A DNA stretch of 64,000 bases from Patescibacteria group bacterium (GCA_022709735.1 JAKLIG010000001.1:128586-192585); one strand, 5' to 3'; shown: positions 6,066 through 35,663, counted from the first letter of the stretch. The notes: generated from the letters alone by a model not told the origin. Numbers and translations are program-made.

Positions 6066-6085
6066 CCTGCCTGCCGGCAGGCAGG
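6066..6085. repeat. GC-rich 20-bp perfect palindrome CCTGCCTGCCGGCAGGCAGG (copy 1 of dispersed family)
   Basis: Perfect palindrome in AT-rich spacer upstream of typA, flanked by CGAAT direct repeat; near-identical copies at 30941-30963 and 35617-35634. Confidence 0.8.
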
Positions 6086-8381: not shown

Positions 8382-8418
8382 AGATTTGTAGTATATAAAA
8401 GTGGTGAAAAGTGGAGAA

Positions 8419-8506
8419 TTACGAACTACGAAATTAATACGAAAGTACGAAAATACGAAAAGGGATTTTGAAATGTTTCGTATTTCGTTAATTTCGTAGT
8501 TCGTAA
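8419..8506. repeat. 88-bp inverted repeat built from TTACGAACTACGAAATTA/TACGAAA units, candidate mraZ operator
   Basis: Arm 8419-8437 TTACGAACTACGAAATTAA is the exact reverse complement of 8488-8506; inner TACGAAA direct repeats; lies between promoter -10 and mraZ ATG; the 18-mer recurs at 9510 and 24652. Confidence 0.75.
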
Positions 8507-8513
8507 ATAATTT

Positions 8514-8948
8514 ATGTTTATTGGCGAGTATCAACATTCTATTGATCCGAAAAAAAGATTGGCAGTGCCATCGAAGTTTCGAAGTGATTTGAAAAATAAA
8601 GTCGTGGTAACGAAAGGACTGGATAAGTGTCTCATCATCTATCCAATGAAAGTTTGGCAAGAACTGGCAGAAAAACTCGGAACACTTCCGATTGGAGAAT
8701 CCGCCACGCGAAGTTTTGTTCGTTCAATGCTAGCTGGCGCAGTGGATTGCGAGATTGACAAGCAAGGAAGAATTTTGATTCCAGATTTTTTGCGCGAATA
8801 TGCGGCGCTTGGCAAGAATGTCATCATCGCCGGAGTGTATAATCGCTTAGAAATTTGGGACGAAAAGAAATGGAATGGATACAAGAAGAATGCGGAAAAA
8901 AATACGGATGAAATTGCAGAACAACTGGGTAAATTGGGAGTATATTAG
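8514..8948 (+). CDS. mraZ: Transcriptional regulator MraZ
   Basis: MFIGEYQHSIDPKKRLAVPSKFR... two MraZ/SpoVT-AbrB repeats, first gene of dcw cluster. Confidence 0.9.
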   Translation: MFIGEYQHSIDPKKRLAVPSKFRSDLKNKVVVTKGLDKCLIIYPMKVWQELAEKLGTLPIGESATRSFVRSMLAGAVDCEIDKQGRILIPDFLREYAALGKNVIIAGVYNRLEIWDEKKWNGYKKNAEKNTDEIAEQLGKLGVY

Positions 8949-9092: not shown

Positions 9093-10094
9093 ATGTCTAT
9101 TCACAAGCCAGTATTGCTAAGCGAAACAATAGAAGCATTAAATCTTAAAAAAGGCGATGTTGTGGTAGATGCGACTTTCGGACAAGGAGGACATAGCCGC
9201 GAAGTATTGAAGAGAATAGGAAGTAAAGGAATAATAGTCGGAATTGATACAGACGAGGATGTTATAAAAAATTTCGCGGAATTTCCAATTTCCAAATCTC
9301 AATTTCCAAATAATTTTCAAATTCCAATTTACAAAAAAGAAAATATTTTTTTAGTCAACAGTAATTTTAATAATCTAGAAATAATTTTAAAAATAATCGG
9401 AATAGAAAAAGTTGATGCGATCCTCGCTGATCTTGGCTGGTCAAGTGACCAGCTCAAAGGAAAGGGAATGAGTTTTCAGGAAGATGAAGAGCTGGATATG
9501 CGATTATCTTTACGAACTACGAAATTAACGAACTACGAAAAAATAAACAGTGAAAACCTAAGCGCTAAAGATATTGTAAATAATTATTCAGAAGAAGAAC
9601 TGGGGAGAATTATTAGAAAATATGGCGAAGAAAAATTTTGGAAAAATATTGCGAGAAAAATAGTTGAATATAGAAAAGATAAAAAAATAGAAAAGACTAA
9701 AGAATTGGCGGAAATTATAAAAACTGCCATTCCGGAAAAGTTCAGGCATACCAAACTAAATCCAGCGACGAGAACTTTTCAAGCTTTGCGAATCGAAGTC
9801 AATGAGGAACTAGAAAATCTGGAAAAATTTATTCCGCAAGCAATCAAAGTTTTGAAGCCGAAAGGCAGACTGGCGATAATCGCATTTCATTCGTTAGAAG
9901 ATAGAATTATTAAAGATAAGTTCCGGGAAAATGCAAGGGGATGCATTTGCCCGCCGGATTTTCCGCAGTGTATTTGCGGAAAAAGTCCGAAGGTTTCAAT
10001 CATCACGAGAAAGCCGATCATGGCCAGTGATGCGGAAATCAAAAACAATCCAAGGTCTAGAAGCGCTAAGCTTCGAGTAATTGAGAAAAAATAA
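9093..10094 (+). CDS. rsmH: 16S rRNA (cytosine1402-N4)-methyltransferase RsmH (MraW)
   Basis: DATFGQGGHS SAM motif, LADLGWSSDQL, DMR motif; 333 aa with two extra in-frame segments derived from repeat families. Confidence 0.9.
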   Translation: MSIHKPVLLSETIEALNLKKGDVVVDATFGQGGHSREVLKRIGSKGIIVGIDTDEDVIKNFAEFPISKSQFPNNFQIPIYKKENIFLVNSNFNNLEIILKIIGIEKVDAILADLGWSSDQLKGKGMSFQEDEELDMRLSLRTTKLTNYEKINSENLSAKDIVNNYSEEELGRIIRKYGEEKFWKNIARKIVEYRKDKKIEKTKELAEIIKTAIPEKFRHTKLNPATRTFQALRIEVNEELENLEKFIPQAIKVLKPKGRLAIIAFHSLEDRIIKDKFRENARGCICPPDFPQCICGKSPKVSIITRKPIMASDAEIKNNPRSRSAKLRVIEKK

Positions 10095-30799: not shown

Positions 30800-31672
30800 T
30801 TAGATTTCAAAGGAAGCAACGCGCCATTTTCCGGCTAAATCTTTTTGAAATTCAACTTTTGCTTTAGGAAAATATTTTTTGATTAATTTTGAAATTTTTT
30901 GTTTTTGTTCGGGACTAATTTCCAAGATAGCTTTTAGCTTACCTGCCTCGCCGGCAGGCGGGTAGCTTTTAGCTTCTAACTTTTTAATCTGTCGGAATAA
31001 TTTTTCATAGTGGTTTAGTCCATCAATTCCGGAAAGCAAAGCTGATTTTGGTTCAAAGTTTTTAACATCGGGAGAAGTTTTGGAATAAATTATTTCAGAG
31101 AGATAAGGAAGATTGGCGACGATAATTAGTTTGTTAGCTTTTAGCTTTTGGCTTTTAGTAAAAAAATAATTCAATAAATCAGATTGAATAAATTTAATTT
31201 TTTTATCAACTTTATTTTTTTTCGCATTATATTCGGCAACACACAATGCTTTTTTAGAAATATCAATTCCAATAAATTTATTTCTAGTTTTTAAATTTTT
31301 TGCCAAGCTAATTATTATATTTCCGCTACCCGTCCCTAAGTCTATTATTGTGCTGTTTTTTGGGCTTATTTTAAGGACTTCTTCAACTAAATGTTCTGTT
31401 TCTGGTCGAGGGATAAGAACATGCTTGTTCACCTTAAAATCAAGGCCATAAAACTCTTTTTGGCCCAAAATATAGGCAATCGGCTCGTGTTTTAGCCGTC
31501 TTTTTACATACTTCTTAATTCTTTCTTCTTGCTTCTTATTCAAATTGTATTCCGGATGCGCCAAAATAAACTCACGAGACTTTTTTAGGGCGTGAGCGAT
31601 AATTAATTCAAGATCTAAACTATCTAATTTTGAAGAATATTTATTGAAATAATCTTTTATTATCACAACCAA
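30800..31672 (-). CDS. prmC: Release factor glutamine methyltransferase PrmC (HemK)
   Basis: DLGTGSGNIIISLAK SAM motif, VANLPYL (NPPY-type) motif; downstream of prfA. Confidence 0.8.
   Translation of the reverse strand: MVVIIKDYFNKYSSKLDSLDLELIIAHALKKSREFILAHPEYNLNKKQEERIKKYVKRRLKHEPIAYILGQKEFYGLDFKVNKHVLIPRPETEHLVEEVLKISPKNSTIIDLGTGSGNIIISLAKNLKTRNKFIGIDISKKALCVAEYNAKKNKVDKKIKFIQSDLLNYFFTKSQKLKANKLIIVANLPYLSEIIYSKTSPDVKNFEPKSALLSGIDGLNHYEKLFRQIKKLEAKSYPPAGEAGKLKAILEISPEQKQKISKLIKKYFPKAKVEFQKDLAGKWRVASFEI
30929..30975. repeat. GC-rich palindrome ACCTGCCTCGCCGGCAGGCGGGT flanked by 12-bp direct repeat AGCTTTTAGCTT, inside prmC reading frame
   Basis: Palindrome 30941-30963; direct repeats 30929-30940 and 30964-30975; encodes PPAGEAG on minus strand. 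Confidence 0.8.
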
Positions 31673-31715
31673 TTTACAATTTTCAATTTACAATTATTTG
31701 ATCATTGAAAATTAA
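31673..31715. repeat. AT-rich CAATTTACAAT repeat cluster in prfA-prmC spacer
   Basis: caatttacaattttcaatttacaatt... shares units with 8949-9092. Confidence 0.6.
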
Positions 31716-32780
31716 TTATTTTCCTAGCTTCCGTTTAATGTCTTCTTCCTGAAGCGCGGAAATTAGTTCATCTATATTTCCTTCCAAAATATTTTTGATA
31801 TTGCTCCAGCTTTGTTTGATTCGGTGATCAGTGATTCGATCTTGCGGAAAATTGTAGGTTCTGATTTTTTCACTTCGGTCTCCGGTACCGATTTGTGATT
31901 TTCGCGCGTCGCTTGATTCTTTGGCTTTTTTGTCTTCTTCCATTTGCAAAAGTCGGGAACGAAGAACTTTCATGGCCTTATCCTTGTTTTTGAGTTGGGA
32001 TTTTTCGTCTTGGCAGGAAACAATGAGGCCAGTTGGAATGTGCGTAATTCGAACGGCAGATTTAGTTGTGTTTACTGATTGTCCGCCAGGGCCCGATGAG
32101 CAAAAAGTGTCGATTCTTAGGTCTTTTTCTTCGATTTTAAGCTCAACTTCTTGGGCTTCTGGTAGAACGGCCACGGTAGCTGTTGAAGTGTGCACCCGAC
32201 CGTTTTTTTCAGTTTCGGGAATTCTCTGCACGCGATGAACGCCGGATTCATATTTCATTTTTCCATATACATTCGAACCATTAATTTCAAAAACTACTTC
32301 TTTGTATCCGCCAATTCCAATGACATTAGAATTCAAAAAAACTGTTTGCCAGCGATTTTTTTCAGCATAACGCGAATACATTCGAAAAAGAACACCAGCG
32401 AAAAGTGCCGACTCGTCTCCACCAGCGCCAGCGCGAATTTCTACGATGACATTTTTTTCATCATTAGGATCTTTGGGCAAAAGTGCTTTTTCCAATTTTT
32501 TTTCAAAAATTTCTTTTTTTTGAGATAACGAAATATTTTCTTCCATTGCCATTTGTTTCATTTCGGCGTCTTCGGTTGAAGAATTTATAATTCCGGCATT
32601 TTCCTCCATGGCTTTTTCTAATTTTTCCAGCTCGGTTATATTTTCCATAACATCAGAGAGTTCGGCTTGTCTTTTTCCAAGTCGCGCCATTTTTTGGGCA
32701 TCATTAAAAACCTCGGGGCTGTTAAGCTCGGTTGAAATTTCGTTATATTCCTTTTTAATCTTCTCAATTTGGTCTTTCAT
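31716..32780 (-). CDS. prfA: Peptide chain release factor 1
   Basis: [19 protein letters not shown] motif; full-length. Confidence 0.9.
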
Positions 32781-32866: not shown

Positions 32867-33805
32867 ATGCAAAAGATTCTAATAATAGGTTCCAAGGGAA
32901 TGCTGGGACAAGAGCTGGTTAAAACTTTTAAAAAAGACGGCGATTATAAAGTAATTGCTTGGGATAGGGAAGATATTGATATCACACGCGAAAAAGAAGT
33001 TTCTAAAAAAATCGGCTTTACTAAGCCGAATGTTATCATAAATGCGGCGGCTTATAATGCAGTGGATAAATGCGAGTCTGATAAAAAGGAATATAAATTA
33101 GCTTTGGATATAAATGGCAAGGCACCAGGATATTTGGCGGCGTCAGCGAAAAAAAACAAAGCTATTCTGGTTCATTATTCTACTAATTATGTTTTTAATG
33201 GCGAACCGGAAATTCCAGAGCCCGCAGGTTGCTCTCATTCCTGTGCTTCTTGTTCGCTTCACCAAGGATTTCAACCGGAGATCGGTTTTAATGAAGATGC
33301 TAAAACTAGCCCGATTAATAATTATGGAAAATCTAAATTATTAGGAGAAAAGGAAGTAGAAAAAAATATAAAAAAATATTATATTATACGCACATCGTGG
33401 CTTTTTGGAAAACCGGCTATCTCGAAGGATGCTAAAAGAAGTTTTTTTGATATAATGTTGGAAGTTGGTAAAAATCCGCCAGCTGACGGAAAAGAAGTAA
33501 AAGCAGTAGAGGATGAAAATGCTTGTTTCACTTATGCGCCGGATTTAGCCAAAAAAACCAAGGAAATTGTTGATGCCAAGAAGCCTTTTGGGATTTATCA
33601 CATTGTGAATAGCGGTCCTTGCACATGGTATGAAGCTGTCGTAGAATTATATAAGCAGGCTAAGATTAAAACTAAAGTTATTCCGGTTGAAGGAAGCGAA
33701 TTTCCTCGTCCAGCCAAACGGCCGTTTTATTCGGTTTTGGTTAATACTAAGCTTAATCCGATGAGAAGCTGGAAAGAAGCGTTGAAAGAATATTTAAAGA
33801 AGTGA
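32867..33805 (+). CDS. rmlD: dTDP-4-dehydrorhamnose reductase RmlD with 23-aa Cys-rich insertion
   Basis: MQKILIIGSKGMLGQEL Rossmann start, STNYVF...NYGKSK catalytic YxxxK; extra PEIPEPAGCSHSCASCSLHQGFQ segment. Confidence 0.75.
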   Translation: MQKILIIGSKGMLGQELVKTFKKDGDYKVIAWDREDIDITREKEVSKKIGFTKPNVIINAAAYNAVDKCESDKKEYKLALDINGKAPGYLAASAKKNKAILVHYSTNYVFNGEPEIPEPAGCSHSCASCSLHQGFQPEIGFNEDAKTSPINNYGKSKLLGEKEVEKNIKKYYIIRTSWLFGKPAISKDAKRSFFDIMLEVGKNPPADGKEVKAVEDENACFTYAPDLAKKTKEIVDAKKPFGIYHIVNSGPCTWYEAVVELYKQAKIKTKVIPVEGSEFPRPAKRPFYSVLVNTKLNPMRSWKEALKEYLKK

Positions 33806-35560: not shown

Positions 35561-35606
35561 TTTTTTAATGTCATTCCGAACTTGATCCGGAATCTATATA
35601 AATTAG

Positions 35607-35648
35607 ATCCTGAAACCTGCCTGCCGGCAGGCACGGCAAGTTCAGGAT
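35607..35648. repeat. GC-rich palindrome CCTGCCTGCCGGCAGGCA (copy 3) nested in ATCCTGAAA/TTCAGGAT inverted repeat
   Basis: Between glyA stop and RmlA-like start; preceded by a second hairpin attccgaacttgatccggaat. Confidence 0.8.
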
Positions 35649-35663
35649 GAAAAAAATAATAAT

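Follow-up and report, generated by a model that had tools for sequence, protein, structure and literature searches.

What kind of sequence is the GC-rich palindrome that lies, in frame and between two copies of the same 12-mer, in the prmC gene of an AT-rich bacterial genome? The question was taken up by comparing the window (the whole 64-kb stretch of DNA analysed here, about 33% GC overall) with orthologous loci, with further copies of the palindrome and with a model of the protein.

The palindrome in prmC and its empty orthologues

The PrmC protein of the window is 100% identical to a protein of a Candidatus Moranbacteria MAG, and the host is an uncultured Moranbacteria (Patescibacteria/CPR) bacterium. 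The reading frame scores as PrmC, with 246 bits against the equivalog model TIGR03534 (cutoff 199), and Pfam returned PrmC_N (PF17827, E = 4e-17) together with a methyltransferase domain. The best solved relatives are the HemK structures 1SG9 and 1NV8. Where the canonical catalytic motif is NPPY the protein has NLPY (residues 187–190; window 31103–31114), and because NLPY is invariant in 120 of 120 orthologues of the clade it is a clade-wide variant and not a sign of decay. The AlphaFold model of PrmC has a mean pLDDT of 93.5 and a pTM of 0.90. The positions of the features discussed below are collected in Table 1.

Table 1. Features of the window, and sequences at filled and empty prmC sites (slashes mark junctions)
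Feature	Position	Strand	Sequence or remark
prmC, release-factor N5-glutamine methyltransferase	30800..31672	-	Intact, 290 aa
prfA	31716..32780	-	Directly upstream of prmC
Inserted unit 'P', 21 nt	30941..30961		+ strand reads ACCTGCCTCGCCGGCAGGCGG, coding strand CCGCCTGCCGGCGAGGCAGGT; gapped in empty orthologues
23-nt imperfect palindrome, limits of the first-pass annotation	30941..30963		ACCTGCCTCGCCGGCAGGCGGGT; last two bases, GT, are from the complement of the pre-existing TAC codon
Three heptanucleotide units 5' of insert	30962..30982	-	AAGTTAG AAGCTAA AAGCTAC; include right-hand 12-mer
Two heptanucleotide units 3' of insert	30927..30940	-	AAGCTAA AAGCTAT; include left-hand 12-mer
Second heptanucleotide array in prmC, 'site 2'	31134..31158	-	TKSQKLKANK; AAGCTAA unit, third 12-mer copy; before NLPY
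Second family copy, perfect 20-mer	6066..6085	.	CCTGCCTGCCGGCAGGCAGG; apparently intergenic; flanks CGAATT / CGAATC
Third family copy, 21 nt	35616..35636	.	CCTGCCTGCCGGCAGGCACGG; upstream of rmlA-like ORF
Query filled site, coding strand			GAAGCTAAAAGCTAC-CCGCCTGCCGGCGAGGCAGGT-AAGCTAAAAGCTATC; GCTAC/insert/AAGCT
L082 empty prmC site, coding strand			CAAGCCAAAAGCTAC-AAGCTAAAAGCTATT; GCTAC/AAGCT
L083 empty prmC site, coding strand			GAAGCTAAAAGCTAT-AAACTAGAAGCTATT; GCTAT/AAACT
Query prmC junction			TAC/insert/AAG
L081 prmC			Query's 23-mer with 2 mismatches, opposite orientation; same junction as query
L204 prmC			CTT/CCTGCCTGCCGGCAGGCATGG/CATG
L205 prmC			TCT/CCTGCATTGCCGGCAGGCAGG/TTG
L206 prmC			ATG/CCTGCCTGTCCGGTAGGCAGG/CTT
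L207 prmC			CATG/CCTGCCTGCCGAAGAGGCAGG/TTTCATG

The GC palindrome reported by the first-pass annotation is present at 30941–30963, but its symmetry is imperfect: a perfect 6-bp stem (CCTGCC/GGCAGG) encloses a 5-nt loop, and the outer ACC/GGT pairs sit past a T·G mismatch. The block is no chance feature. It takes in the 24 nt that are richest in GC anywhere in the window (19/24), and the 23-mer ACCTGCCTCGCCGGCAGGCGGGT had zero matches in shuffled window sequence.

In an alignment (A1) of 120 PrmC orthologues with 54–70% identity to the query, residues 238–242 of the query were gapped in 97% of the sequences. The insert corresponds to seven codons, residues 238–244, and the coding strand at the site yields ...EAKSY PPAGEAG KLKAILEIS... 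(in the stretch ...KSYPPAGEAGKLK...). The closest uninserted proteins read LQAKSY/KLKAILEIS (P0011) and LEAKSY/KLEAILEFS (P0004). Palindrome-free orthologues are exactly seven residues shorter at this point, which is what an insertion predicts, and the segment gained is of seven residues instead of the twelve first proposed. It sits at the turn before the LEIS/LEIG strand (LxLEIG in other PrmCs), where the first-pass annotation had placed it. At the DNA level, comparison of the filled site with the empty sites of L082 and L083 indicates that exactly 21 nt were gained in prmC, with zero target duplication. The suspicion that a palindrome had entered without closing the frame is borne out by this clean gain; prmC stays open because the unit is 21 nt long and stop-free in all six frames.

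That these residues are ordinary ancestral loop sequence is contradicted by their being missing in 97% of orthologues. A short perfect palindrome common to very different contigs could look adapter-like and suggest an assembly or sequencing artefact, but the flanks are colinear with the orthologues, the insert measures exactly seven codons, and diverged copies occupy the same site in independent assemblies (JGI, ENA, NCBI, Logan). Ancestral sequence or artefact is accordingly given next to no credence.

The flanking 12-mer and the heptanucleotide arrays

Two exact copies of the 12-mer AGCTTTTAGCTT, at 30929–30940 and 30964–30975, bracket ACCTGCCTCGCCGGCAGGCGGGT as had been described, and a third exact copy lies 160 nt off at 31136–31147, also in prmC. 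These are the only three exact occurrences in the 64 kb, every one of them within this gene. With one mismatch allowed there were four matches against 1.2 expected, a number reached in 2 of 100 shuffles.

The 12-mer had been taken for a target-site duplication. On such a reading a transposon-like element of about 23 bp would have duplicated 12 bp of its target and kept the frame by chance, and the two exact 12-mers around the palindrome, like the direct repeats that flank many other family copies (see below), would be accounted for. However, both copies are already present in the palindrome-free alleles of L082 (AAGCCAAAAGCTAC/AAGCTAAAAGCTAT) and L083, where a single AAGCTAAAAGCT would be expected. 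An addition of 23 + 12 = 35 nt would, moreover, shift the prmC frame, the third copy lies elsewhere in the same gene, and a non-coding pair of filled and empty sites, described below, is likewise free of any duplication. Filled and empty prmC alleles alike contain about five imperfect heptamer units. The empty sites refute the duplication model, which we regard as very improbable.

The 12-mer amounts to 1.7 units of a 7-nt tandem array, (AAGCTAN)5, which on the coding strand of the query runs AAGTTAG AAGCTAA AAGCTAC (insert) AAGCTAA AAGCTAT. TRF reported a period of 7 at 30963–30984, and with the insert removed the array has a lag-7 autocorrelation of 0.66. The downstream units AAGCTAA AAGCTAT are found in the empty orthologues L082 and L083 too. 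As judged from these alleles, the 12-bp direct repeat is part of a pre-existing heptamer array and not a target-site duplication. The spacing of the two 12-mers, 35 nt, equals 5 x 7 and is not divisible by 3, which puts them in different reading frames (E-A-K-S-Y vs K-L-K-A); hence the insertion made no 'duplicated KLKA' of the kind that the first-pass annotation had supposed.

Heptamer arrays at PrmC sites 1 and 2 are a feature of the whole clade. Among the PrmC orthologues, peptide identity at offset 7 was 0.18 at site 1, the site of the insert, and 0.154 at site 2, vs about 0.07 elsewhere. In the DNA, lag-7 autocorrelation was about 0.5–0.66, and 7 was the strongest lag in 12 of 13 prmC loci. 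The units themselves differ from orthologue to orthologue: AAGCTAN, ATTGGAA, CTGTNCA, AACTANA and TTTCATG at site 1, CTCACTA, GGAATTG and TGATCAN at site 2. About 20 period-7 arrays occur in the window, several of them within genes. Position and period are kept while the unit changes from one orthologue to the next, a pattern explained neither by point mutation along lines of descent nor by selection on the protein. Conserved in position and variable in unit, they represent an unexplained mutational phenomenon which deserves a study of its own.

The palindromic family, its targets and its return to prmC

The palindrome belongs to a family whose consensus is CCTGCCTGCCGGCAGGCAGG. An additional base is usual, and the forms met most often are the perfect 20-mer and 21-mers that are one base longer. 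The ends are sharp, always CCTGCC...GGCAGG, plus or minus one base. Three copies are present in the 64-kb window and none in shuffles. A pattern scan of metagenome contigs found the family in at least 120 contigs, and 72 viral-contig stretches matched as well, altogether more than 190 contigs beyond the window. The identical 20-mer recurred in contigs whose GC content ranges from 29% to about 70%, and also in phage-like ones. By its sequence, the prmC insert is a member of this very large, dispersed family of palindromes and not the singular oddity of prmC that it had first appeared to be.

The copy at 35616 occupies the loop of a pre-existing hairpin (GATCCTGAAA-CCTGCCTGCCGGCAGGCACGG-CAAGTTCAGGATG; GAAA/insert/CAAG). 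Its empty counterpart was found in the Moraniibacteriota locus L207 (GATCCTGAAA-CAAGTTCAGGATG; GAAA/CAAG), and here, too, the gain is exactly 21 nt with no duplication. As this pair is non-coding, the 21 nt are a property of the unit itself and do not merely reflect selection on the reading frame. The insert measured 21 nt in all seven cases in which the empty-site sequence or the array frame is known.

For the analysis of target choice, the flanks of about 100 copies in low-GC contigs were compared with control positions on the same contigs. A directly repeated stretch of 7 nt or more, lying in the 14 nt to either side, was present at 14% of copies vs 1.3% of the controls (Fisher, p of about 1e-9), and a direct 6-mer common to both sides of the palindrome at 27% vs 7–9.5%. 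The lag-7 autocorrelation peak was 0.329 in the copy flanks and 0.268 in controls. Among k-mers shared across the palindrome the spacing was a multiple of 7 in 61 of 130 and peaked at 35 nt, the distance that separates the 12-mers in prmC. The enrichment of flanking repeats was weaker in high-GC viral contigs. Apart from a depletion of T at position -1, no conserved base was found among 193 flanks, and the REP tag is not a property of the family, GTAG being found in 4 and CGTC in 1 of the 193.

Single copies sit inside the loops of hairpin repeats (window 35616; L174 copy 3) or in the arms of tRNA fragments. Insertion solely into hairpin loops was considered and rejected, inverted complementarity of the flanks being only weakly enriched (runs of at least 5, 12% vs 6.6%). 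An extension of the hairpin by its flanks was likewise dismissed, the stem beyond CCTGCC..GGCAGG being no longer than chance. Residence within functional tRNA genes, which would imply removal at the RNA level, did not hold: the tRNA-like surroundings in L194 and L135 proved to be truncated pieces of tRNA beside intact tRNAs, and with the palindrome deleted ARAGORN found no tRNA across the junction at either locus. Together, these data show that the family favours short tandem arrays and the loops of hairpins as targets, an unusual choice that can be tested.

The prmC array has been entered more than once. Site 1 exceeds the modal length by 4–14 residues in 11 of the 120 orthologues (~9%), and in the six whose DNA was compared (query, L081, L204, L205, L206 and L207) exactly 21 nt are inserted in each (Table 1). 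A seventh locus, L283, has a related palindrome of 51 nt with a nested hairpin, ACCCGCCTCG-(inner hairpin)-CGAGGCGGGT, and P0037 carries an LPAGRQG insert at site 2. The peptides differ between lineages (PPAGEAG, LPRRQAG, PACRQAW, PALPAGR, ACLPKRQ), as do the phase of the insert within the array and its orientation. Orthologues that carry an insert have uninserted ones as their nearest relatives; P0068, for instance, the closest to P0043, is empty, and P0003 shares 82% identity with P0036 and 79% with P0011, but only 69% with the query. In L204, L205 and L207 the prmC copy is the sole family copy within about 21 kb. The contig scan for prmC relatives used generic peptide patterns, by which only L001–L003 were close. 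Differing phases and orientations, together with empty closest relatives, argue for recurrent targeted insertion in at least six prmC lineages and not for one ancient event, and indicate that the array was hit independently in several of them. For lineages with identical phase (query, L081), recurrent precise loss after an ancient insertion is an alternative.

Copies of the family are depleted from long open frames: by a 450-nt criterion 45% lie in such frames vs 76% of random positions. About 30 in-frame copies were found in other genes, encoding LPAGRQx, LPAGKAG, LPRRQAG, PACRQAG or LPAGEAG. Among their hosts, judged by conserved motifs of the flanking peptides, are one ORF that resembles ATP synthase alpha and one, with three copies, that resembles DNA ligase. 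A continuous ORF spans 17 of 74 copies, and ORFs lie in different frames on both sides in 1 of 74, the random level; there is therefore no hint of translational bypass or frameshift over the palindrome, and both readings were rejected. The coding copies are, as far as frames can tell, translated passengers. A Cys-rich segment of RmlD, EPAGCSHSCASCSLHQGFQ, was considered as a further insertion; it is invariant in two relatives, each 84% identical to the window protein, and is hence not an insertion of the palindrome kind.

In the PrmC model residues 238–244 fall into a loop between a helix (220–236) and a strand (246–251), and the 10-residue blocks over this loop have mean pLDDT values of 64 and 78, below the model average. 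PPAGEAG is thus predicted to sit in a surface loop, a placement that the first-pass annotation had proposed to test. From class I methyltransferase topology, this loop, which enters the strand, would be at the edge of the sheet, opposite the SAM/NLPY catalytic site with its cofactor and substrate.

Could the hairpin have been retained because it is useful, either in the RNA, where it might stabilise the mRNA, be cut by RNase III or make translation pause, or in the enzyme as a functional PPAGEAG loop? Occupation of the site in about 9% of orthologues, and the isolation of the prmC copy within 21 kb in three relatives, would suit such a role, and the coding-strand RNA could fold at the palindrome with -21.5 kcal/mol, the stem being lengthened by flanking AGCT tetramers. 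The z-score of this fold is, however, only -1.7. Rfam gave no match in the window at gathering score, and a search around the site to E 10 returned chance-level matches only (Rickettsia sRNA, 17 bits vs a gathering score of 97). Domestication into a loop, which had been offered as one possibility, is further opposed by the absence of the insert from the closest relatives, by the variation of peptide, orientation and phase between lineages, by the low model confidence of the loop and by the depletion of the family in coding DNA. A useful element is, in our view, quite improbable.

Mode of movement and relation to known systems

Taken together, the locus is probably best explained by a single insertion, free of duplication, of a 21-nt family copy into a pre-existing heptamer array, representing tolerated selfish DNA and not an adaptation. 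One copy of the dispersed GC-rich micro-repeat would have entered prmC at an (AAGCTAN)5 run encoding a helix/beta-strand junction, and PrmC would have gained PPAGEAG in a surface loop with the gene remaining open. The comparisons above establish that 21 nt were inserted and nothing was duplicated, that either orientation is used, that the insert is a member of the family, that certain targets are preferred, that insertion at this site recurred and that, in the model, the added residues fall into a loop.

The manner in which the unit moves is put forward more tentatively. It may travel as a discrete hairpin handled by a structure-specific enzyme supplied in trans, for which a REP/RAYT- or IS200/IS605-like single-strand transposase, or an equivalent, would be a candidate; such an enzyme would favour DNA that is easily single-stranded or folded, namely short tandem arrays and hairpin loops. 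We consider this mode plausible, at somewhat less than an even chance, and it is favoured because the ends of the insert are so sharply defined. Pfam scans of the copy-rich contigs L174 (carrying FtsK, RecA and EF-P) and L248 (phage genes) revealed no mobilising gene. The missing conserved flanking motif goes against insertion of the IS200/IS605 type, which predicts one, and the same 20-mer in contigs of 29–70% GC is hard to square with a single host-specific transposase.

The main rival to a trans-acting enzyme is an enzyme-free spread, in which replication template switching or ectopic gene conversion would copy the palindrome from one of its other sites into structured or stalled DNA. The flanks would then be expected to show neither a duplication nor a conserved motif, slippage-prone arrays and hairpin loops would be natural targets, and neither the lack of a transposase beside the copy-rich regions of L174 and L248 nor the very different GC content of the hosts would be surprising. 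Copy-choice events, however, usually leave microhomology and variable end points, whereas here the ends are sharp, the length is 21 nt in all seven known cases, and homology between donor and target is absent, the heptamer units varying by locus. We therefore rate enzyme-free spread as rather unlikely. The distribution of the 20-mer over 29–70% GC and phage contigs is explained by neither the enzyme nor the template-switching model.

More speculatively, palindrome and arrays may both be traces of an undescribed insertion system that crosses phyla. At 21 nt, the length of three heptamers or of seven codons, its unit would be smaller than any other discrete mobile DNA known, would enter arrays and hairpin loops without duplication and would repeatedly remodel the same loops of essential proteins; the arrays would be made or continually rewritten by that machinery and would not be passive landing pads. 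We hold this broader proposal to be doubtful.

Whichever way the unit moves, the family inflates and diversifies protein loops in the CPR, with LPAGRQx, LPAGKAG and PPAGEAG in PrmC and in ATP synthase- and DNA ligase-like proteins (identified by motifs). Such inserts can mislead alignments and the assignment of domain boundaries, and they may serve as presence/absence markers for strain tracking. Clean filled/empty pairs and the repeated return to the same few bases of an essential gene make the target choice of this tiny repeat directly testable.

In-frame selfish palindromes are textbook knowledge for Rickettsia and for yeast mitochondria. Our literature search found no report of them in the Candidate Phyla Radiation, and the 20-mer was in no paper found.

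REPs inside genes, repair genes among them, are on record (Di Nocera et al., 2013; PMC3733652). REPs and the prmC family are both GC-rich stem-loops of 20–40 bp with many copies, mostly intergenic and in some cases intragenic, where the few residues that they contribute plausibly fall into loops, and both are thought to be non-autonomous. With a palindrome of 20–21 nt and three copies in 64 kb, the family has the size and copy number of REPs. In contrast to REPs, it lacks the GTAG/CGTC tag, occurs mostly as singletons and not as head-to-head dimers or BIME clusters, has no RAYT in the copy-rich L174 and L248, has a fixed length of 20–21 nt and is strongly associated with heptanucleotide arrays; its host in the window is of the Patescibacteria/CPR, and the same 20-mer is found at 29–70% GC and in viral contigs.

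In Rickettsia, RPEs enter genes without disturbing the frame (PMC10969869), and the analogy drawn with them by the first-pass annotation is apt in kind: both are selfish palindromes that lie in frame in housekeeping genes unrelated to one another, in a genome that is reduced and AT-rich, and at places where the protein fold admits them. RPEs differ in being about 100–150 bp long, with a conserved peptide of 30–50 residues, and in being confined to Rickettsia, whereas the prmC unit has 21 nt and seven residues; no similarity of this unit to RPE-1 to RPE-10 was found.

The GC clusters of yeast mitochondria include optional in-frame insertions in var1 (PMC8811140). Like the prmC family, they are short, mobile, GC-rich palindromes of a very AT-rich genome, mostly intergenic, with optional in-frame insertion in a protein gene and with nesting in the loops of other clusters. 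They are longer (30–50 bp and above), have AG/TAG terminal repeats read as target duplications, and some of their relatives are translationally bypassed. The prmC family shares their optional in-frame presence, but shows neither terminal repeats created by insertion nor any sign of bypass, and lives in a bacterial host; common descent is not implied.

MITEs and the IS200/IS605-derived PATEs are, like the prmC family, non-autonomous structured repeats, and insertion of the IS200/IS605 type is also duplication-free, into single-stranded DNA. MITEs, however, have terminal inverted repeats and target duplications and measure at least 50 bp, and PATEs have two different end hairpins and a fixed target of 4–5 nt; the prmC family has neither set of features, and two filled/empty comparisons gave a clean gain of 21 nt with no duplicated base. 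Set apart from each of these systems by the features which define it, the element in prmC is a REP/RPE-like selfish micro-element, tolerated by its host, undescribed but ordinary in kind.

Dispersed GC palindromes and in-frame insertions

The window contains 13 GC-rich perfect-arm palindromes (arm of at least 6 nt, loop of at most 5 nt) vs. 1-6 in each of 20 composition-preserving shuffles, and 3 of the 13 belong to the 21-nt-palindrome family. A 12-nt in-frame indel, to which the small palindrome within the RmlD ORF belongs, gives GKNPPADGKE in the window and GKK----NKE in the comparison locus L081; in the Moraniibacteriota locus L207, the counterpart of this palindrome is the perfect TCCGCCAGCTGGCGGA. 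As this indel carries a different palindrome, more than one repeat family makes in-frame GC-palindrome insertions. The hairpin repeats upstream of the rmlA-like gene read GTCATTCCGAACTTGATCCGGAATC, followed by GATCCTGAAA..CAAGTTCAGGATG. Both occur in L207 as well, but the 21-nt palindrome nested in the second is found only in the window genome.

Coordinates of the features (window positions unless a locus is named)
Feature	Position	Location
PrmC catalytic motif NLPY	31103-31114	residues 187-190
Heptanucleotide tandem arrays	30927-30982, 31134-31158, 31509-31538, 31670-31695	in or at prmC
Family copies	L194 640-700 and 816-880; L135 325-380	inside truncated tRNA fragments
Small GC palindrome TCCGCCAGCTGACGGA, distinct from the 21-nt family	33475-33490	inside RmlD ORF 32867..33805
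Common hairpin repeats, two copies	35570-35594 and 35606-35649	upstream of rmlA-like gene
In-frame heptamer arrays	9270-9335 and 9505-9545	inside ORF 9093..10094
Long imperfect inverted repeat	8418-8510	upstream of MraZ-like ORF 8514..8948

Family copies in tRNA fragments and viral contigs

In the comparison contigs L194 and L135, the truncated tRNA fragments that hold family copies are 5' halves, with the copy in the D-arm, and one 3' half, with the copy in the T-arm. Intact tRNA genes adjoin the fragments, which look like integration scars. A GIY-YIG-like ORF, called from its sequence motif alone, is located near the fragments in L194.

The identical 20-mer CCTGCCTGCCGGCAGGCAGG is multicopy in phage-like IMG/VR contigs of 60-68% GC (L209, L219, L248, L250, L251 and L266). 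Some of these copies are flanked by GTGAGAG/GTGAAAG heptamers and some are situated within longer inverted repeats; in L248, GTAG immediately precedes the stem on its 5' side in some cases. The 21-nt-palindrome family, or the CCTGCCTGCCGGCAGGCAGG sequence, extends beyond AT-rich CPR genomes.

Heptamer arrays in prmC and around the MraZ-like ORF

The PrmC catalytic motif, NLPY in place of the canonical NPPY, is invariant in 120/120 orthologues of the Moranbacteria/Parcubacteria clade. Heptanucleotide arrays are also present in the prmC genes of L001, L002, L280-L282 and the empty-site orthologues L082 and L083, at positions in PrmC that are fixed clade-wide. The unit varies among orthologues (AAGCTAN, ATTGGAA x4, CTGTNCA, AACTANA, TTTCATG, CTCACTA x4, GGAATTG x4); its sequence has been replaced, yet period and position are conserved. 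We know of no mechanism that would produce this pattern.

Both arms of the inverted repeat upstream of the MraZ-like ORF are themselves heptamer arrays (TACGAAN / NTTCGTA) around a 14-nt centre. Because the 19-mer TTACGAACTACGAAATTAA from this region recurs at 9510, within the adjoining ORF, the TACGAAN-type arrays behave as dispersed repeats. The latter ORF is rsmH/mraW-like, going by its position, and its AATTTCC and TACGAAC units encode EFPISKSQFPNNFQIPIY and SLRTTKLTNYEK, respectively. By analogy with the arrays of PrmC, these in-frame arrays probably add loop residues.
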